A stretch of DNA of 15,429 bases from Candidatus Micrarchaeota archaeon (GTDB lineage: Archaea; Micrarchaeota; Micrarchaeia; Anstonellales; Bilamarchaeaceae). Numbering within the stretch: the stretch's first letter is position 1; each line of letters starts with the position of its first letter. A program made the position numbers and the translations under genes. Where the stretch lies: NCBI GenBank assembly GCA_038046765.1, contig JBBSVN010000013.1, positions 1 through 15,429 on the forward strand, read 5' to 3'. The notes beneath the pieces were generated by a model. That model searched no databases, was not told the DNA's origin, and was given only the letters and a program-made list of their open reading frames with translations. Shown piece by piece: positions 4,466-15,429 of this stretch.

Positions 4466-4840
4466 TTAAACTCCTGAAGTATGTACTGCCTCGATTTCTA
4501 TAAGCATTTTATTTTTACCCACCCGTGAAACTAAAACGTGCTCATTTCCACTTAAATGCATGTCTCGCTCTAAATCATTTGGAATTCTTAGAATAGTTCC
4601 TCCAGTACTCTTTGAAAGTTTTCTGTGAAGTTTTAATGGTTGTCCCCAAACACCCATACGCCTCGCAACTTCGATTGTTTTTTGACCTTGTTCCTCTGGA
4701 ATAAACTCTTCTTTACAATTTGTGCATCGCTCTCCCTTTTCGATAAATATGAAACCTTCTAATTCCGTAACTATATCATCAACAGAAGCCAGAACTCCCT
4801 TTTCACAGATCGGGCATGATTTTGTAGTATCAGTTTTCAT
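4466..4840 (-). CDS. YgiT/MqsA-type zinc-ribbon protein with C-terminal AbrB/MazE-like DNA-binding domain; putative antitoxin
   Basis: CPICEKG...RCTNCKEEF (2x CxxC) followed by LHRKLSKSTGGTILRIPNDLERDMHL...VLVSRVGKNKMLIEI, which matches the AbrB swapped-hairpin pattern. AGGTGA RBS lies inside the upstream gene, with an ATGA overlap at 4840-4837. Confidence 0.75.
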   Translation of the reverse strand: MKTDTTKSCPICEKGVLASVDDIVTELEGFIFIEKGERCTNCKEEFIPEEQGQKTIEVARRMGVWGQPLKLHRKLSKSTGGTILRIPNDLERDMHLSGNEHVLVSRVGKNKMLIEIEAVHTSGV

Positions 4841-5028
4841 TTAATATCACCTTCCGAACCGCTTATTATAAAAACGGTTTCAAATTCCAAATAATAAACA
4901 AATATGATTTTCTTTCCACCATCTTTTCTTATATATGATTCATATTTATTTTTTCCGATTTTCTCTGTTTTGTATGTTTCTATAAGTGCACTACGTAGTT
5001 GATTATAATCCCAGTCCCACTTACGCAT
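4837..5028 (-). CDS. DUF4258/RelE-superfamily-like small protein, putative toxin (N-terminus apparently extends to ~5068 but is frameshifted)
   Basis: Small basic ORF translationally coupled to the Zn-ribbon gene. The frame continues upstream of the annotated Met as KLDISKHFRDKY-MRKW, resembling the 'S/T-x-H...M' start of DUF4258-like toxins. Family assignment is by eye. Confidence 0.55.
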   Translation of the reverse strand: MRKWDWDYNQLRSALIETYKTEKIGKNKYESYIRKDGGKKIIFVYYLEFETVFIISGSEGDIK

Positions 5029-5191: not shown

Positions 5192-6367
5192 TTAGGATTG
5201 TTTTCTTAGCTCGTATTTTTTTACCAATTTATATATGGTATCATAATTCACATCTAATCTTTTTGCTATGGCTGGTATGCTCAAATCTTCATTCAAAAGC
5301 TTTTGCACAATTTCAATTCTACATTCGTCTATTATTTTATTAGGATCATAACGCTTATTAAGTAAAAATTCATAGATCTGATTAAGTGGAAAATTCATCA
5401 AATTTGATAGACGCTGTGCAAAACCTCTTGGTTTGAATTTAGGCCTTAGATTAAATGGATCAAGTTTCAATACTGCTCGTTTAATACTATCTAAATTTAA
5501 AGTTCTATCTTCTGATACCATCTGTCCTATTTGAACTGGGACAGTTGAGGTCGCAGGCATTTTACCAGTAAAAACATAATTATTTACATCAATAACTCCA
5601 CCTTCAGAAAAAACAGCGGCTCGCTCAACAAAATGTTTCAAGTCCCGAACGTTTCCGTTAAATCTTTGGGATATTGACCCAAGTTTTTCCAGAGCATTAT
5701 CTGAAAAAATCAATCCTTTTCCATATTCTTCACTTAAAAGCTCTAAAAAATGACTAACTAAGAGCGGAATGTCTTCTACTCTCTGCCATAATTGTGGCAT
5801 GTCTATTGTTAATCCAGTTAATCTTGAATAAAGGTCTCCCCTAAATTTACCACTTGCTATCTCCATTCTAAGATCTTTATTTGTAGCTGCAACTAAACGA
5901 AATTCTATTTTTTGAAATCGATCACTGCCAAGAGCTCGGATTTGTTTGTACTCCAGAGCTCTTAATAAAGCAGACTGAACATGCATTGGCATATCTCCAA
6001 TTTCATCTAAAAAAAGTGTTCCATTTTCAGCACACAAAATAGCTCCGCGCCTATCATTATACGCTCCTGTAAAAGCACCTTTGACATGACCAAATAATTC
6101 GCTTTGAAGAAGTTCGCCATTTGGAGTCGCAGCGCAATTTAGAGGAACTAAATCTCCTTTTCTACCGCTTTCTTTATGTAGTGCTTGAGCTACTAACTCT
6201 TTACCCGTGCCGCTTTCTCCAGTTATTAAAATAGGAAGTTTTGCTGGTGCAGCTCGTTCAATAATTAGTCTAATCTCTTCAATTTTTGGACTCTTTCCAA
6301 CAATTCCAAAGCGTCTATGCTCCAGAGGAATAGAAGAAGGTCTACCAATAACAATTGCTGCAACCAT
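5192..6367 (-). CDS. Sigma54-interacting (NtrC/PspF-family) AAA+ transcriptional regulator with C-terminal HTH and no sensor domain
   Basis: Walker A GESGTGKE, LNCAA, ELFGHVKGAFTGA, Walker B LFLDEIGDM, RLVAATNKDL, FRGDLYSRL and GNVRDLKHFVERA. C-terminal HTH SIPAIAKRLDVNYDTIYKLVKKY. Start is ATG at 6367 (or TTG at 6376), with TTTATATA at 6405-6398. Confidence 0.93.
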   Translation of the reverse strand: MVAAIVIGRPSSIPLEHRRFGIVGKSPKIEEIRLIIERAAPAKLPILITGESGTGKELVAQALHKESGRKGDLVPLNCAATPNGELLQSELFGHVKGAFTGAYNDRRGAILCAENGTLFLDEIGDMPMHVQSALLRALEYKQIRALGSDRFQKIEFRLVAATNKDLRMEIASGKFRGDLYSRLTGLTIDMPQLWQRVEDIPLLVSHFLELLSEEYGKGLIFSDNALEKLGSISQRFNGNVRDLKHFVERAAVFSEGGVIDVNNYVFTGKMPATSTVPVQIGQMVSEDRTLNLDSIKRAVLKLDPFNLRPKFKPRGFAQRLSNLMNFPLNQIYEFLLNKRYDPNKIIDECRIEIVQKLLNEDLSIPAIAKRLDVNYDTIYKLVKKYELRKQS

Positions 6368-6416
6368 ATTTATCAAATATTATATTGTTACAAAAAGTAT
6401 ATAAATAGTTAATAAA

Positions 6417-6550: not shown

Positions 6551-7603
6551 TTACTCCGGTCTCTCGGGTAACAGTCCCGCTCTTTTTACAATTACATACG
6601 CAAGAACTGTTGAAATAATTGTCGAAGCGACTAATAAAATTATATACCAATTAGCATCTTTTGGACCTAGATTAAAAATAGTTCCGCTAAGCGCTGTTGC
6701 AAGCGTATTTGGAACTAAAACCGCAGTTCCAACAATCGTTAAATATGCCATCAGTAATGCAATCCTATTGTTAAGTATCTGCAATTGGTTGTTGTATATA
6801 CTTTGTAAAACTTCAAACCCGCTAGATAAAACTGCGCTTAAATGTTCTGCTAAACTTATCTGATGTGAAACTGAATCGACAACATTTCCAAATTTTCCAA
6901 GGATAACCTCATCATCAGTAAATAATTTTGCATCTCCATACTTAAATGAATTAAGGACATCTACGGTAATCCACAAGCCAGATAAATAAGAAATTAATGC
7001 ATGTTTCATCTTATGTATCTCTTTGCTGATTTGTGTTCTTGAAAATTTAGGGTCTGCTAGTTTGCTACTTATAGAATCGGAATGTTCTTGTATCTCCTTA
7101 AGATAATCGAAATTTCGGTCATTATTTTCATCAATTAGACGAATAAACAATAATGATAAGTTGTCTTCTGCTTTATGTTTTGGGTTTAATTTGCCAAGCA
7201 TAACTTTTCCATACCTTCTTAATCTGACAAACCTCTGGACTTCTTTGGAATGTATTGTCAAAACTAGATTTTCTTTAACTAGGATATAAAGAGAATTTAA
7301 TTTAACAATAAATCCAGACACAGTTATAGATGGAATTATTATTGCTAATTCGGAATCAAAATCTTCGTATCTTGGTTTATCATTTGAGAATACCTTTAAA
7401 AGAAAATCCTTACTAAATCCAAGTTCAGGCGAAATTTTGTTTGCTGTTTTTTCAATTTCATCAGTTACAATATCTACCCATGAAATAAAGTTGGTTTTGA
7501 CCATATCAGGAATTCCATTCGTTTCTGTTGCAGCGAGCGAAGTGGTTTTCCCATTTTTGGACAAAGATACGCAGTAGATATTCTGATTGTTTGTGTTTTC
7601 CAT
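6551..7603 (-). CDS. CorA-family divalent cation transporter, atypical (no GMN motif)
   Basis: 350 aa. The soluble alpha/beta domain (SWVDI...PRYEDFD...ENLVLTIHS) and long stalk helices are followed by NNQLQILNNRI and two C-terminal TM helices, which is CorA architecture. TM1 ends VPNTLATALSG instead of YGMN. Confidence 0.85.
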   Translation of the reverse strand: MENTNNQNIYCVSLSKNGKTTSLAATETNGIPDMVKTNFISWVDIVTDEIEKTANKISPELGFSKDFLLKVFSNDKPRYEDFDSELAIIIPSITVSGFIVKLNSLYILVKENLVLTIHSKEVQRFVRLRRYGKVMLGKLNPKHKAEDNLSLLFIRLIDENNDRNFDYLKEIQEHSDSISSKLADPKFSRTQISKEIHKMKHALISYLSGLWITVDVLNSFKYGDAKLFTDDEVILGKFGNVVDSVSHQISLAEHLSAVLSSGFEVLQSIYNNQLQILNNRIALLMAYLTIVGTAVLVPNTLATALSGTIFNLGPKDANWYIILLVASTIISTVLAYVIVKRAGLLPERPE

Positions 7604-7605
7604 GT

Positions 7606-9900
7606 TTATCCCGTACTAACAAATCCAAAGTAAACTAGAACAAGTCCCAAGAGAATTAAGAAAGCACCGTAAACAATCGCGCCAATCGTTCTTCTTTTTG
7701 GGTCAGTCATAAATTTAGCAAATGCAGCTAGTTCAAGCGCAAATACTAAAACTCCGATACCAACCGCAAGCATTTTTGATAAATTCCACGTTAAGTTTGA
7801 GTTTATTCTAACAAAGTGCAATACTGAAAACAGATATGCTAAATAAACCAATCTGTGAAGGCGCTTCCAGTTTTTAGCCCCCAATTTAGCTGTTGCCCAG
7901 TCAGTTGAAGTCAAATACAGTGGTAGATAAATTGCAAATGCCATACTTCCAAAAAGAATCGCATTTTCTAGTGGATTAAGGTTTGCAAATATTGCGCTAG
8001 GTCCAATTTGTAAAAAGATTGAAACTGCGAGCATGTGAACTATTGCAAAAGTGAATCCCCAAACTCCAAGAGTTCTTCTATGTGTAATATAATTTATTTT
8101 TGGAACTAATATTGCAAGTGGTCCAACAATTAATGCTAGTCCAATCAGTTCTGCTGCAACATAAGCTGCTGAAAGTAATATCGCCCTGTTCAATGAACCT
8201 GCTAAATTTGTTAAAAATAAATAAAAGAATTGTATGAGCCAGAATGCAATTATCACTGCGCTTGATTTTAGTACGTAGCCAATGTTCTTTTTTGCGCCAG
8301 CAAATAGTTGCGGGCCTGTTTTTGTAGTTGCTGCTGTATTCGCTGTTCCGCCTTGCATCTCTACCTCGATATCATTTCCAGTTACGCGAACTTTAAATGC
8401 CTCAACTGCTTTTGGTGCTGGTGCTCCAAGTACTGCTCCTGTTTTTATATCGAACCGTGCATTATGGAGCGGGCATTGGATTGCACCATTTTCTATTGTA
8501 CCATCGCATAGCGAACCTCCGGCATGAGTGCATGTATTATCAATCGCGTAGTATGCTCCATCCATTTTGAAAAGTGCAAGTTTTGTTCCCCCTGCGGTAA
8601 TTCCAAGAGGTTTACCTTCAACAACATCGCTTACTTTCGCTACTTTGAAAAATTCTTTAGCGCCTGTTTTTAGCATTTGCGTGCGTGGCACTGGTTTTGC
8701 AATATTCGCTTTAGTTCTTGAAAATGAAAGTAAATTCGCATAAATATTTGAATTGCCAGTTACTAAGTCCGCCACTATAGATGAAGCAAAAGTCCCAAAT
8801 ACTAAGCCGTTTCCTCCAAACCCGCAACAACTTCCTACAAATACTTTTCCTTTATAATGTGGGTGTTCAGAAGCATAGGGTAAACCATCTGATGAATCAA
8901 ATAAACTTCCTGACCAGGTGTTTGTTACCTTAAATTCTGTTTTAAAGTATTTTTCTAAAAAGTTTTGTAACTTTAAAAATGGCGATTCTTTTGAAGGCGG
9001 TTCGCTAACTGAACGGTCCGAACCTCCTAAAATTACTGTATTCTTATCGAGCCTTCTATAATAAAAATAAGGATCAAATGTATCCCAAAATAAGTTATCC
9101 GAAAACGGTACTTCATTTTCAAACTTAGCCAATATAGAGTAAGTTATTTTTGGCATAAATAATGAATGAAGTTCAGAGAAAAATTTAGGTGGTAATCCTG
9201 TTGCAACAACAAGTTTTTTTGCCTCTACTTCTCCTTTGTCTGTTTTAGCTATTACAAATTCGCCAACATCCACATCTGTAACTTCGCTCTCCTCAAATAC
9301 CTGAATTTTTTTAGATTGCGGTAGGGCAAGTAATCCTAGTAAAAATTTCCTGACATTAAATTTACCTTCGTTGGAAAATTTTATTGCCTCTTTAATTGCA
9401 GGCGAAAAGGCTATTGCTTCTTTACCCGAAATAAAAGAACTATTTGGGTCCGCTTTTTTTATCGAATCCCACTCTTGCTTTAGCACTTGGTCATCTTTAG
9501 AATACGCACAATAGAATGATGAACAGTTAGAAAAGTCGCAATTAATTTTATTTTCCTTTATTGTACTAAATAAATATTGTTGTGTTTTTGTAGTTGCTTC
9601 AAAAAGTTGTTTTACAAATTCTTCTCCGTATAGTTTTTCTAATTCACAAACTTGAGTATCAGGAACCCTAGTCATAAATCCGGTAGTAAAAGCAGTATCC
9701 CCTGTTGCCACGTGATTTTTTTCTAATATTACAACTCTTAAACCTTTGTTAGCTAAATGCCACGCAGTCATTACTCCGACTATTCCGGCACCGACTACTA
9801 CAACATCAGTTTCGATCTTTTTATCAAGACTAGAAAATCTTTTTTGGTCTGGTACTGATTCTAACCATGGCGAAATTGTTAATATATTTTCATTTTTCAT
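7606..9900 (-). CDS. FAD-dependent oxidoreductase (DAO/YhfW-like) fused to a Rieske [2Fe-2S] ferredoxin and a ferric-reductase/MsrQ-like heme-binding transmembrane domain
   Basis: Rossmann motif DVVVVGAGIVG...VVILEK, WSG...SDGLPY and GFGGNGLVFG. Rieske motifs CTH (Cys457) and CPLH (Cys476) with RFDIKTG. C-terminal multi-TM region with HRRTLGVWGFTFAIVH, YLTSTD, WKRLHRLVY and SVLHF. Confidence 0.9.
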   Translation of the reverse strand: MKNENILTISPWLESVPDQKRFSSLDKKIETDVVVVGAGIVGVMTAWHLANKGLRVVILEKNHVATGDTAFTTGFMTRVPDTQVCELEKLYGEEFVKQLFEATTKTQQYLFSTIKENKINCDFSNCSSFYCAYSKDDQVLKQEWDSIKKADPNSSFISGKEAIAFSPAIKEAIKFSNEGKFNVRKFLLGLLALPQSKKIQVFEESEVTDVDVGEFVIAKTDKGEVEAKKLVVATGLPPKFFSELHSLFMPKITYSILAKFENEVPFSDNLFWDTFDPYFYYRRLDKNTVILGGSDRSVSEPPSKESPFLKLQNFLEKYFKTEFKVTNTWSGSLFDSSDGLPYASEHPHYKGKVFVGSCCGFGGNGLVFGTFASSIVADLVTGNSNIYANLLSFSRTKANIAKPVPRTQMLKTGAKEFFKVAKVSDVVEGKPLGITAGGTKLALFKMDGAYYAIDNTCTHAGGSLCDGTIENGAIQCPLHNARFDIKTGAVLGAPAPKAVEAFKVRVTGNDIEVEMQGGTANTAATTKTGPQLFAGAKKNIGYVLKSSAVIIAFWLIQFFYLFLTNLAGSLNRAILLSAAYVAAELIGLALIVGPLAILVPKINYITHRRTLGVWGFTFAIVHMLAVSIFLQIGPSAIFANLNPLENAILFGSMAFAIYLPLYLTSTDWATAKLGAKNWKRLHRLVYLAYLFSVLHFVRINSNLTWNLSKMLAVGIGVLVFALELAAFAKFMTDPKRRTIGAIVYGAFLILLGLVLVYFGFVSTG

Positions 9901-10026
9901 AAATGTAATTGGAAAAGTGAGGATTAAAAAGCTGAGTATAAATAAAAAGATGAAATAAAAAGATAAAATTGAATCATAAAAATTAGATGTGAAAATTAAA
10001 TGCTTCTAAAAAAATCATAAAAAATC

Positions 10027-10071
10027 CAGTGGCTGTTGCCACTAGCTTTTTAAAATCGTGGATTTTAAAAA
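10027..10071 (-). terminator. Two hairpins downstream of the helicase, followed by T-rich tracts
   Basis: 11-bp perfect IR TTTTTAAAATC-GTG-GATTTTAAAAA (10047-10071) and AGTGGC-TGTT-GCCACT (10028-10043). These are followed on the minus strand by GATTTTTTATGATTTTTTT. Confidence 0.5.
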
Positions 10072-10086
10072 TTAAAAAAAATTTAT

Positions 10087-11508
10087 TTAAGCAGAGTTTC
10101 TGCTATAAAACCGGGTACCAGTGTGTTTTGGATATCTTCTTCGTTCTGGTCTTCTTTCTCCCTCTGCACCTTGCGTTCTTTCTCCGCCTTCTTTATGCTC
10201 AGAACTACCTTCTCGTCTTGGTGCCCCTTCGCTTCTGTATCCGCCTTCGCGCCTTGGACCGCCTTCTCTTGGTGCTCCACCTTCTCTAGATCCACCTTCG
10301 CGTGAACCATATCCGCCAGATCCGCCTCGGTATCCGCCACCGCCTTCACGGCTTCTGCCACCGCCGAACCTGCTTCCGCCACTTCCTGGTCTTCGTGAAA
10401 AAGAGATTCTTCTAGGTCGGTCTAAATCAGAACCTTGCAATCTTGGTTTGCTATAATCAACTTGTCTTGGTGTATAATCCGTTTCGACAAAGGTTATTGC
10501 CTTACCTTTTTTACCCATTCTACCCGTTCTTCCGATTCTGTGTGTGTGGGTATCATGTGATTGTGCCCGGTCATAATTAATTATGTGGGATACTTCTTCA
10601 ATGTGTAATCCTCGAGCTGCGACGTCTGTTGCAACCAATATGTTGAAAAATCCGTCTTGGAAATCCTTCAAAGTCCTTTCTCTTTGACTTTGGCTCTTGC
10701 CTCCATGTAAGAATCTAGCTTTTACTCCTGCTATGTTTAATTTTTTACATACAAATTCAACTGCATGCTTGGTTGATGCAAAAATAATCATCTTGCTGTC
10801 TGTTTCTTTTGCTATAATATCAACAAGTTTTTGCATTTTGTCTTTTCTTGGCAAGTTAATAAATTCTTCTTCTATACTTTCTGCTTTTCCAAGTTCACCT
10901 ACCTCGATTAATTCTGGTGAATTCATATATGTGGATGCTATTTGTTTTATCCTTGCATCAATTGTAGCAGAAAATAATAATATTTGTCTTTGGTGATTTA
11001 TTTGGGACAATATATCATCAACGTCCTCCTTAAATCCCATATCGAGCATTCGGTCTGCTTCATCTAACACAGCATAACCAATTACGCTTAAATCAAGTAT
11101 TTTTTGTCTTACATGGTCGAGTAATCTTCCAGGTGTTGCAACAAGTATGTCGTAACCACCTTTTATTAATTGTATTTGTGGTCGCATATCCTGTCCGCCA
11201 TAAATTGCATAAATTCTCATTCTGTGTGTTTTTGCGATTGCCCTTAATTCTTTAGTAATTTGCACTGCTAGTTCACGAGTTGGAGCTAGTATAAGCGCTT
11301 TACGATTTGGTTCTTTTGATAATATTTCAACTAGTGCAATTCCAAAAGCAGCAGTTTTTCCTGTACCTGTTTGGCTTCTTACTAATACTTCTTCTCCTTG
11401 TAATACTAAGGGTATTGCCTTTTCCTGAACTTCAGTTGCGTCTGTATATCCTAACATCGTTAGTGCTTCCAAAGTTTTATCACTAATACTCAAATCTTTA
11501 AATTTCAT
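10087..11508 (-). CDS. DEAD-box ATP-dependent RNA helicase (DeaD/CshA-like) with Arg/Gly/Glu-rich tail
   Basis: Q motif (ATEVQ), SQTGTGKT, PTRELA, YGG, TPGRL, DEAD, SAT, TDVAARGL and HRIGRTGR. Low-complexity REGG-repeat C-terminus. GAGG RBS upstream. Confidence 0.97.
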   Translation of the reverse strand: MKFKDLSISDKTLEALTMLGYTDATEVQEKAIPLVLQGEEVLVRSQTGTGKTAAFGIALVEILSKEPNRKALILAPTRELAVQITKELRAIAKTHRMRIYAIYGGQDMRPQIQLIKGGYDILVATPGRLLDHVRQKILDLSVIGYAVLDEADRMLDMGFKEDVDDILSQINHQRQILLFSATIDARIKQIASTYMNSPELIEVGELGKAESIEEEFINLPRKDKMQKLVDIIAKETDSKMIIFASTKHAVEFVCKKLNIAGVKARFLHGGKSQSQRERTLKDFQDGFFNILVATDVAARGLHIEEVSHIINYDRAQSHDTHTHRIGRTGRMGKKGKAITFVETDYTPRQVDYSKPRLQGSDLDRPRRISFSRRPGSGGSRFGGGRSREGGGGYRGGSGGYGSREGGSREGGAPREGGPRREGGYRSEGAPRREGSSEHKEGGERTQGAEGERRPERRRYPKHTGTRFYSRNSA

Positions 11509-11908: not shown

Positions 11909-12547
11909 ATGAGATTTATTAAAATTTTTACCTCTCTATTAGCGTTGCTTGTATTATCATCCATAAGTAGTGCTATTTTTATAGGTGTTAATGGAAGTTC
12001 ACCACCTACATGCGTGCAGGGTATAAATTTTATCTGGAACTTTTCAACAATCCAGGCTGCAGTTAATAATGCAACTACTGGAGATACTATTTATGTATGT
12101 AAAAATAGTACTAATCCGTATGGGGAACAAGTAGTTGTAAATGTATCAGTAAACATTTATGGTAATCAAAGTACAGATGTTAATTTGTCGATCCCAACTA
12201 CTGCACCAATATTATTTAATGTAACTAGCAATTGGGTAAACATAACTAATATATCATTTAATGGAGGTGATGGTACTGGAGGCACTTTTGTATCAGGTAT
12301 TCTTCTAAGTAGTTCAAATTATAGTAAAATCTACAACAACAGCTTTACTAAAAATCTCTACAATATATATGTATACAATTCCAATAACGTAACTATCGAA
12401 AATAACAGTATCGATAGACAGCAGCACGGTGGGGCTTCTGAAATATCTATCTATTTGAATTCAAGCAGTATGAATAATATTACTAATAACTCGTTTTACA
12501 CTTCAGGTGGATCGGGGGGGAACAAGCATTTCTATAAAGTTAGTTAA
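11909..12547 (+). CDS. N-terminal fragment of a large secreted parallel beta-helix (PbH1/NosD-like) surface protein
   Basis: Signal peptide MRFIKIFTSLLALLVLSSISSA, TIQAAVNNATTGDTIYV motif and Asn-ladder repeats. The frame ends 9 codons after a G7 tract (12514-12520). TATA-like TTTTAAA lies about 29 nt upstream. Confidence 0.85.
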   Translation: MRFIKIFTSLLALLVLSSISSAIFIGVNGSSPPTCVQGINFIWNFSTIQAAVNNATTGDTIYVCKNSTNPYGEQVVVNVSVNIYGNQSTDVNLSIPTTAPILFNVTSNWVNITNISFNGGDGTGGTFVSGILLSSSNYSKIYNNSFTKNLYNIYVYNSNNVTIENNSIDRQQHGGASEISIYLNSSSMNNITNNSFYTSGGSGGNKHFYKVS

Positions 12548-15429
12548 TTCAACTGATAATCTTATCTATGATAATAATATGACTGGTGCGTCTGGTACTG
12601 CTGCATTATGGGTTGCACTAGACTCACCAAGAAATAACCTTACGTCAAATAAAATAAATAGTTTAAATGCTGGTGCAAGTGGCATCTACATTGCTTCATC
12701 TTATAATGTGCTATTAAATAACTATGTTCGAAATTGGGGTGGCAGTGGGGCTTCAGGAATTTATTCTGATGCAAGCAACAACAACTATACTAATAATCTT
12801 CTTCACGGAGATAGTGATCGCGGTCCAGGTTACAGTTTTTCAAGTTCCAATAACAATAATATAATTAACAATACTGTTTCAAGTAATAATCCTGCTTCTA
12901 GTTACTCAACTAATACTGCTGGTTTTTCATTTTCAAGTAGTTCGAATAATGTTCTTATAAATACTACTGTTTTACAACCTCAACCTCCCGGTCCCGGTGT
13001 TCAATTTACTTCAAATTCTAACAATAACACGCTACAAAACATTAATGTCTCTAGCTTTTCAGGAGGTTTTTCTGCAAATGGAGTATTAATTTCTGCTAGC
13101 TATAACAATACTGTTAAAGACAGTAACTTTTCGAATTTGGATGGCGGAGCAGGTGCTGCTTCTACTGCTATAAATTTAACAAGCGGAAGCGCAAATAATA
13201 CTATCTCAAATAATAGTATGAATACAACTACTCTCTCTAGTTTCTTGGACTTAAACACAAACTCTGAAAATAATACGATTAAAGATAATGTCTTATACAA
13301 AGTTGTTCTAGGTTTTCATATTGGTGCTACTGCCAAGTACAATTTAATATTTAATAATACGGTTAGACATTCCACTACTCAAGCATTTCAAGTAAATGGT
13401 GGTAGTTCGGATAACTTATTTGAAAATAATACCGCTATTTATTGTGTCAGTTATTGTTATTATTTTTTCAATGTAAATAAGACAAATGTAACTGGAAATA
13501 ATGCTACAAACGGTCAGGCCGGATTCTATTTTACAACTGGAAGTTGGGTGATTGCAGTTAATAACACTGCATTTAACAGCTCAGAAAATGGATTTTATTC
13601 AGACATAAATAACAGCGCATTTATCAATAATACTGCGTCTTTAAGTAACGGTAGCGGATTTAATTTTACTTCTTACTCTTTTGGAATTAATTTTACAAAT
13701 AATACTGCATTCAATAATAGTTATGCTGGTATTGCATTTGCACTAGGTTCAAACTTTAGTAATTTAACAAACAATACGGCATATAAGAATTTTATCGGTT
13801 TATACATATTAAACACAAATGATACGCGAATAAGCGGAGATCATTATTATAATAATAGTTTTGATCTTCGTGTGGAAGATACAATAAACAGTAATCGTTT
13901 AATTAATTTTTCAAGAGTTATAATTGACAGTCCAAGAGGAGATTATGCTAATTATTCTAATTTATCCATAAATATGACTCTATATGGTAATAGTGCTTTC
14001 ATAATAAACTGGAGCAATCTGACTAATCTGGTTAATCTCCCTGCATCTTCGTATGTTTCATTTGGAAACAAATTCCTTAACATAACTAACGTTACTAGTA
14101 ACATTACTTTTACTAATGTTGCATGGCACTGGCAACAGAATGAGATTACACTGGGTTATGTAGAAAGTTTATTTGAAGTTTGGAAATTTAATCATACTGG
14201 AGTTTGGAATAAATTAACTACGACCTTAGATACATCTGGAAATTCATTAAATTTCGATAATATAAATACTTTTAGTCTTTTCTCAATACTTATGCTTAAC
14301 GATACCACTGCTCCAACAGTGGCACTTAATTCGCCGGTAGCTCATACTGCGTTTAGTACTGCTACGGTAAATTTCAATTTCACTGGAACAGATAATGGTG
14401 CTAGTACGCTTAATTGTACTATTTTTGTTGATGGGGTAATGAATAACTCAAACTCTTCAACTACAAATGGCAGTGCAACCAATATTACTGTTTTAAGTAT
14501 TCCCCAAGGAAACCATACCTGGTTTACACAGTGTGCTGATAGTGCAAATAACTATGCAAATGCAACTGCAAGAAATTTCACTGTAGATACTACTGTTCCA
14601 GCAATTACTCTCAATACTCCTGTTGCAAATAACATTTCAAACATAACTACTGGTAATTTTGCATTTACGCCTACAGATAATGTTGCAACTTCTTTCAACT
14701 GTTCAATTTCGATTGATGGAACACTAAGGGTCAGTAATGCCTCAACCATCAATAATACTGCAACTAATTTAAGTTTAGTCAGTTTAGGGCAAGGTAATCA
14801 CACTTGGTTTGCAAGTTGTTCTGATACTGTCAATAATTCAGTAAATACTTCTGCTCAGAATTTTTCTATTGATAGTGTGGCTCCAAGTATTACTCTTAAT
14901 TACCCAATTAATCATACTGTCTTTAGTTCAAGCACGGTAAACTTTACTATAACTGCCACGGATAATCTGGCACTACCAATGAACTGTTCAATATTTGTTG
15001 ACGGTTCCTTAAACTTATCTAATACTTCAACTATCAATAATACTGCAACTAACCTAAGTTTAACTGGAATAGGACAGGGCAATCACACGTGGTATTCAGT
15101 ATGTTTAGATATGGCTAACAATTCTATAACGACTGGTTCAAGAAATTTCACTGTAGATACTACTGTTCCAGCAATTACTCTCAATACTCCTGTTGCAAAT
15201 AATATTTCAAATGTAAGCACAATGAACTTTAGTTTTACTCCATCTGACAATACAATCGGTGCATTAAATTGTTCATTAACTGTTGATGGAACCTTAATAT
15301 TCAGTAATACCTCAACTCAAAATAATACTGTAACAAATATTAGTTTAACGAGTCTTGGGGAATCAAATCATACGTATGTAATTGGTTGTTCAGATTTAGC
15401 AAATAATTCAGTAAATAGCAGTGCAACTA
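12522..15429 (+). CDS. Continuation of the large surface glycoprotein (beta-helix repeats, PGF-pre-PGF-like domain, tandem Ig-like repeats); open to the window end
   Basis: Hand translation from 12522 gives TSISIKLVNSTDNLIYDNNMTG... with no stop to 15429 (~969 codons; first in-frame ATG at 12579). The ORF track misses it because it lacks a stop. It contains beta-helix repeats (GIYIASSYNVLLNN, NNTAFN...GF), a ...WNKLTT...FSLFSI domain ending near 14290, then DTTxP-initiated repeats. Confidence 0.9.
14301..15429 (+). repeat. Tandem 285-bp (95-aa) Ig-like domain repeats, at least 4 copies
   Basis: Units start at 14301 (DTTAP), 14586 (DTTVP), 14871 (DSVAP) and 15156 (DTTVP, truncated by the window). 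Each has DN...NC..xVDG/IDG...NHTW/Y...C.D..NN with two conserved Cys. Confidence 0.92.

Follow-up and report, generated by a model that had tools for sequence, protein, structure and literature searches.

A Micrarchaeal fusion of a DAO-family flavoprotein, a Rieske domain and an MsrQ/STEAP-like membrane domain as a candidate outward electron wire

Can one polypeptide of a small archaeon oxidize a substrate in the cytoplasm and hand the electrons through the membrane to an acceptor outside the cell? This question is raised by a single gene in the window (the whole 15,429-nucleotide stretch analysed), which is one entire contig of a 1.5 Mb Candidatus Micrarchaeota genome that is 89.7% complete. 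The sequencing runs matching the window best are groundwater metagenomes, runs with small shares having been left aside for this habitat call.

The fusion gene and its three domains

The gene product, P0001, is read from a frame without an internal stop (Table 1). The three redox modules that the first-pass annotation had seen in this frame were all recovered by Pfam above the cut-offs, as DAO (residues 32-379, E 6.6e-45), Rieske (418-502, 1.2e-21) and Ferric_reduct (604-692, 1.5e-9), and the motifs CTH...CPLH, AIVH, RLHR and VLHF lie where that annotation had placed them. It had also considered that a misassembly might have joined separate genes. Neither this nor a frameshift lies behind the fusion: the frame is open, a single contig of sequencing run X2 crosses positions 6991-10460 with zero differences (X2 may itself be the source of the assembly), and 27 further proteins, 38-84% identical, have the same domain order. 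In RNA run X10 (share 0.07), two short contigs fall within the gene, one of them spanning the DAO-Rieske linker; they may derive from DNA and were therefore not counted as expression. A promoter and terminator scan of the locus gave a signal no higher than in shuffled sequence.

Table 1. Positions of the fusion gene, its domains, its predicted membrane cofactor residues and the adjoining gene
Feature	Position	Strand	Description
Dehydrogenase-Rieske-MsrQ-like fusion gene (P0001)	7606..9900	(-)	764 aa; Pfam/NCBIfam, AlphaFold2 model
DAO-family flavoprotein domain, YhfW-related (aa 9-398)	8707..9876	(-)	GxGxxG, E60, WDxxxPYxYxR pocket motif; without carboxylate Arg
Ferredoxin-type Rieske domain (aa 415-514)	8359..8658	(-)	Ligands C457, H459, C476, H479
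MsrQ/STEAP-like 7-helix membrane domain (aa 540-763)	7612..8283	(-)	Predicted N-in, C-out
R608-R609 (MsrQ R77-R78)	8074..8079	(-)	Predicted FMN site, with S665 and W678
H622 (MsrQ H91)	8035..8037	(-)	Predicted haem b ligand
H682 (MsrQ H151)	7855..7857	(-)	Predicted FMN stacking residue, no haem ligand
H695 (MsrQ H164)	7816..7818	(-)	Predicted haem b ligand
CorA-family gene	6551..7603	(-)	Starts 2 bases past the fusion stop codon

The AlphaFold2 model of P0001 (mean pLDDT 85.7, pTM 0.64) has seven helices in its membrane part, which supplies the topology model that the first-pass annotation had suggested building. The inner loops carry 3, 3, 5 and 4 Lys/Arg residues and the outer loops 1, 0 and 0; this positive-inside pattern and the seven helices together predict that the N-terminus, with FAD and the Rieske domain, is inside and the C-terminus outside. 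In the linkers at 407-412 and 518-530 the pLDDT is below 50, and the contacts between the domains are not fixed by the model. Foldseek with the whole model returned DAO-fold entries alone, and the ESM Atlas matches were solely generic DAO and DAO-Rieske clusters. The membrane fold was compared on the model of a family member, P0169, rather than on the membrane part of P0001 alone; this model has the FRD-type helical bundle, and its nearest solved structures are STEAP4 (Z 17.5, rmsd 3.9, 194 aligned) and STEAP1 (Z 17.2).

Predicted cofactor sites and comparison with known systems

The four Rieske ligands are kept in 26 of 26 aligned family proteins. P0001 has the dioxygenase-type Rieske ferredoxin signature (CxH...CxxH, without the disulfide Cys); its best NCBIfam matches in this part are the dioxygenase ferredoxins HcaC and AndAb, and the nearest solved chains are dioxygenase ferredoxins as well. 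Judging by the likeness to BphF-type proteins, the cluster would be of low midpoint potential.

The membrane domain was mapped by alignment to E. coli MsrQ, whose R77, R78, H91, T134, S135, W147, H151 and H164 correspond to R608, R609, H622, T664, S665, W678, H682 and H695. Each of these eight haem/FMN positions is conserved in 50/50 family membrane domains, of which 42 belong to complete fusions and the other 8 to partial or stand-alone proteins, and all 50 show the signature of the YedZ/STEAP branch, with R608 in place of the first haem His and the outer pair H622 and H695. According to the available text of the MsrQ study (PMC12525009), H91 and H164 hold a single outer haem, R77, R78 and H151 lie at an inner FMN, and electrons pass from the cytosolic FMN to the outer haem. 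The first-pass annotation had read three His as residues of a haem domain; H622 and H695 retain this role as the predicted haem b pair, but H682 aligns with the FMN-stabilizing H151. The three His would therefore mark one haem b and one flavin in the membrane domain, which raises the predicted cofactors of P0001 to four.

In the structure search the flavin domain matches the DAO fold, and its GxGxxG...E motif is intact. The Arg of the glycine oxidase WAGLRP motif, which we take to be the carboxylate ligand, aligns to L333 of P0001, and no Arg occurs at this position in 82 fusion proteins (L, I, V or Q in 82/82). The missing Arg argues against an amino acid as the donor and sets P0001 apart from ThiO-type amino-acid oxidases. 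Accordingly, of the amine or amino acid proposed at first, the amino acid is disfavoured and an amine is kept as the putative donor. The conserved pocket is acidic and aromatic (W272, D273, Y278, Y280 and D295, plus R282), likewise in YhfW-type proteins, and hints, with low certainty, at a cationic amine. The available text of PMC7317962 gives no assigned substrate for YhfW, the nearest studied relative. A dehydrogenase-only gene elsewhere (L184:22-3485) is flanked on the same strand by speD and mtnA, which may hint at polyamines; no weight is placed on this link, as the arrangement occurs at a single locus and this genome has weak spermidine-synthase matches and, by BLAST, no SpeD match.

P0001 shares with MsrQ (YedZ, of E. 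coli MsrPQ) the Arg-for-His signature, one predicted bis-His haem and the counterparts of R77, R78, S135, W147 and H151. However, P0001 has a fused donor module, whereas MsrQ uses the free reductase Fre; it has a seventh helix, and residues 549-703 score 55.8 bits against NCBIfam MsrQ (NF003831), under the cut-off of 130. There is no msrP in the operon: as first annotated, none is adjacent, the neighbours being the CorA gene and a DEAD-box helicase. On these grounds P0001 does not belong to MsrPQ. STEAP2-4, the best fold match, also combine a cytoplasmic oxidoreductase and a flavin/single-haem membrane domain in a single chain, but they use an NADPH-binding domain and diffusible FAD in place of the DAO-family domain and Rieske cluster of P0001, and they carry Gln at the flavin position where P0001 has His. 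Two stand-alone MsrQ-like genes of one genome (L096:6517-7209 and L097:6056-6934) resemble STEAP in having Gln in place of H151. NOX and long-form ferric reductases were rejected, since the first haem His is Arg in P0001 and an FNR domain is absent.

The nearest dehydrogenase family is that of YhfW (Bacillus subtilis, DAO + Rieske), a type defined here by motif, with the B. subtilis YhfW sequence itself outside the comparison. The positions D273, P277, Y278, Y280, R282 and D295 are common to both. On the other hand, YhfW-type proteins are soluble, have a C-terminal CPCH Rieske and form a separate clade, whereas P0001 has a ferredoxin-type Rieske (CTHAGG...CPLH) and seven membrane helices, and is thus not a member. 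Finally, the NQR/RNF-like and MsrQ-like flavinylation systems, as described in the part of PMC8238504 at hand, also fuse a cytosolic donor to a conduit for a surface redox protein; the donor of P0001 is DAO-Rieske and not NAD-binding PF00175, and BLAST searches of this genome gave neither ApbE nor FMN_bind. In general, P0001 has a STEAP2-4-like layout and belongs to none of the MsrQ, NOX and YhfW groups.

Distribution, other fusions and gene neighbours

With residues 400-764 of P0001 as the query, 30 proteins were retrieved among 8000 scored candidates; a second search of 1.84 billion representatives gave its best 150 matches, and the pool of both comprises 177 proteins. Among the matches listed, the order DAO-Rieske-MsrQ-like occurs in 42 of these 177. 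Type A (this order, P0001 included) accounts for at least 34, type A plus a C-terminal DM13 for at least 8, type B (DAO-ferric reductase-Rieske) for at least 15 complete proteins and the YhfW type for at least 66, the remainder being single or partial domains. In type B the membrane part is a four-His, two-haem ferric-reductase domain, the four His being present in 16, 16, 15 and 15 of 16 domains, and the Rieske domain is shifted to the C-terminus. Type C (DAO-RnfD-like-Rieske) was found in one Micrarchaeon with a weak Pfam match (25.5 bits vs 27.7), and type D (RnfD-like-DAO) in 25 proteins, 17 of which have a CPCH-type Rieske; the membrane parts of types C and D are homologous. A first dehydrogenase tree that included fragments was poorly resolved. 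In the final tree, from which dehydrogenase-only and unclassified proteins were left out and in which half of the YhfW-type proteins were kept, A, B+C and D form separate groups (support 0.988, 0.834 and 1.0), and this separation suggests that the same dehydrogenase was joined to membrane conduits at least three times.

The named family members belong to the Micrarchaeota and to the Patescibacteria (Magasanik-, Kerfeld-, Andersen- and Peribacteria), together with a single partial protein from Nitrososphaerales and one bin with the label Gammaproteobacteria. A genome of the same taxonomic family (G394, Candidatus Bilamarchaeum) encodes a protein with the same beginning as P0004. No homologue of the fusion was found in the 60 nearest relatives of the host genome; within the phylum, a threshold of 1e-50 gave matches in 8 of 401 genomes, three of them type A, and on the Patescibacteria side a threshold of 1e-45 gave matches in 19 of 401, of which 16 were examined further and four are type A. 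The distribution is patchy. At least one full and at least one partial close locus occur among the 80 matches listed in the metagenome scan. The dehydrogenase and the membrane domain are also found apart: stand-alone membrane domains are common, and membrane-DM13 proteins without the dehydrogenase occur in Nitrososphaerales. At L225:6029-6784 a stand-alone membrane domain lies beside a DEAD-box helicase, where same-genus relatives have the full fusion.

No published description of the DAO-Rieske-MsrQ-like fusion was found in the literature covered, which mostly lies outside subscription papers; the available text of the FRD survey lists a Rieske extension and no DAO (PMC3591440), and PMC11334425 and PMC10659578, each in the part at hand, give further context. 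The type D loci could already be in the gene-cluster table of PMC8238504. The architecture, regarded at first as unrecognized, is therefore apparently undescribed but not a one-off, as it recurs across small-genome archaea and bacteria. The fusion is a real and recurrent variant of the MsrQ/STEAP kind.

No conserved operon partner was found across the 20 loci compared. The CorA gene is probably co-transcribed with the fusion gene, but none of the 19 other loci has a homologue of it, and it was rejected as a functional partner. The C-terminal part of its product is without GMN, the signature motif of the CorA family, and a divergent selectivity is possible. Elsewhere in the window, a sigma-54-type AAA+ activator with a C-terminal HTH (5192-6376, minus strand; PF00158, E 5e-59) stands in an archaeal genome; sigma-54 is known as a bacterial factor, and this is probably a transferred or repurposed regulator. 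Two small overlapping ORFs at 4466-5028 (minus strand), the larger with two CxxC pairs, have no Pfam match, and their layout is suggestive of a toxin-antitoxin pair. A Beta-helix/Ig-like surface protein at 11909-15428 (plus strand) is read in overlapping frames (11909-12547 and 12507 onward), possibly a frameshift or a split gene.

Direction of electron flow and candidate acceptors

Based on the results presented above, there is about an even chance that P0001 is an outward electron wire from a flavin donor to a surface acceptor. The flavin domain would oxidize a cytoplasmic metabolite, likely an amine, and the electrons would pass from FAD to [2Fe-2S], to the membrane-bound FMN, to one haem b and then to a surface acceptor. 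Swinging on its flexible linkers between both flavins, the tethered Rieske domain would turn the two-electron step into one-electron steps. Oxidized metal centres, i.e., Fe(III) or Cu(II) chelates as for STEAP, would be the likely acceptors, with a surface protein (cupredoxin or DM13) as an alternative in relatives that have one, and the haem would be taken up by scavenging. The self-contained trans-membrane chain proposed by the first-pass annotation thus gains from the invariant cofactor residues, the topology and the repeated conduit fusions, while its direction, donor and acceptor are what we infer.

Export is the most likely direction, a reading favoured by the modularity of the dehydrogenase, which is the strongest clue to function: its fusion to four-His ferric-reductase and RnfD-like domains and the layout of a type D locus. 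The latter (L219:4089-9384) is a Parcubacteria operon in the order cupredoxin, RnfD-like-DAO-Rieske, FMN_bind (SGAT motif) and ApbE, a full NQR/RNF-like system whose donor domain differs, and it has 25 homologues. The cytosolic donor of NQR/RNF-like systems is an NAD-binding domain in the part of Méheust 2021 (PMC8238504) at hand, and DAO-Rieske in this donor slot argues for outward flow.

An intact type-1 cupredoxin directly adjoins the fusion in three of the 20 loci compared (a single locus for each of types B, C and D) and in none of the 13 type A loci. Cupredoxins occur in 14/18 carrier genomes (one of which has the membrane domain only) vs 8/34 non-carriers, a pattern seen post hoc among kin that are not independent; within the Micrarchaeota the enrichment is weak (4/6 vs 6/14). 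DM13 is C-terminal in 8 type A proteins and predicted to be on the outer side of the membrane; its Cys is kept in 19/20 aligned domains and a His-Cys pair in 18/20. Its function is given as a prediction only in the available text of PMC4140639. The DM13 of the P0169 model (residues 290-398) has a borderline likeness to the Cu/Zn superoxide dismutase sandwich (Z 8.3, rmsd 3.0). DM13 was detected in 3 of 18 carrier genomes, each time fused, by searches that were silent on the control set and positive in three genomes known to carry it. In this genome, at 89.7% completeness, MsrP (PF00174), DM13, FeoB, cytochrome bd and COX1 were not found; cupredoxin gave no Pfam match, and the sole cupredoxin-like protein is without the copper motif. 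A small molecule is thus the default acceptor here. SufBD, NifU and VIT1 are present in this genome.

Instead of a surface metal or protein, a membrane-anchored dehydrogenase might reduce a quinone-like carrier, or O2 to superoxide. Ubiquinone was present in purified MsrQ and was proposed as its acceptor (PMC12525009, available text), and the searches of this genome gave no dedicated surface acceptor, but the outer DM13 fusions and the cupredoxin and FMN_bind neighbours of relatives indicate surface acceptors and no oxidase was found for re-oxidizing a quinol pool, so that this reading is improbable, if the first among the alternatives.

Next in probability, and still improbable, is a wire running inward, in which a low-potential donor outside (host surface, reduced mineral or flavin) would feed haem and FMN, then the Rieske cluster, FAD and a cytoplasmic substrate. 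In E. coli MsrQ the potentials are -340 mV for FMN and about -250 mV for haem, and a low-potential Rieske ferredoxin lies at about -150 mV. The Rieske-to-FMN step of the outward wire would thus be uphill unless it is tuned or pulled by a high-potential acceptor, whereas electrons leaving the membrane domain for a ferredoxin-type Rieske would move downhill; the small-genome hosts, in which no terminal oxidases were found, fit inward flow as well. Against it, 17 of the 25 RnfD-type fusions have a CPCH-type Rieske, which is high-potential and suited to oxidizing FAD. MsrQ, STEAP and NOX, moreover, all move electrons outward (available parts of PMC12525009, PMC3591440 and PMC10659578), and blue copper sites are high-potential acceptors (PMC11638306, in the part at hand).

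Less probable again, the wire might supply an MsrQ-like repair of surface thiols or methionines through DM13 or a thioredoxin-like lipoprotein. All the MsrQ cofactor residues are retained, the Cys of DM13 is nearly invariant, CcdA/DipZ-like and DsbA-like genes are present in this genome, and in 3 Micrarchaeota loci DipZ-like genes are found no more than 6 kb away. However, these three loci resemble one another in gene order over a wider stretch, and the DipZ link may therefore be inherited; the MsrP family occurs in just 1/18 carriers and DM13 is rare and always fused; and the donor would have to be stronger than an amine likely is. Separately, two DsbA-like secreted proteins are followed by an FNR-like gene at L238:2561-4928 of this genome (by sequence and BLAST).

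ALAD, ferrochelatase and COX1 were found in none of 18 carrier genomes in searches with positive controls, the genomes being incomplete. This lack of haem synthesis genes speaks against the outward wire and suggests either scavenged haem or an empty site. Least probable of all is an unwired fusion of convenience, whose membrane part would be an anchor without haem or a reductase with its own electron supply. Haem synthesis genes were not found, membrane domains often stand alone (in G172 at the same gene site beside the helicase) and an FNR-like gene lies at another place in this genome, but the haem and FMN residues are invariant over 38-84% identity, and the dehydrogenase is joined, in four arrangements, to three membrane electron carriers that are unrelated or distant.

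If the outward wire is true, P0001 would be the first conduit of the MsrQ/STEAP type to receive its electrons from a DAO-family dehydrogenase instead of NAD(P)H, and a prokaryotic single-chain counterpart of STEAP2-4. Haem reduction would provide a direct read-out for seeking the substrate of the widespread YhfW family. The fusion also implies that selection maintains haem proteins in symbionts with small genomes and no haem synthesis, and thereby opens haem scavenging to testing. More tentatively, and with the odds against it, DPANN archaea and Patescibacteria might share a plug-in electron source other than NAD(P)H, made up of the YhfW-related dehydrogenase and its Rieske shuttle, with at least three wirings and stolen haem, that delivers electrons to surface copper proteins, minerals or the host; if so, a hidden route of extracellular electron transfer would exist in cells regarded as purely fermentative.
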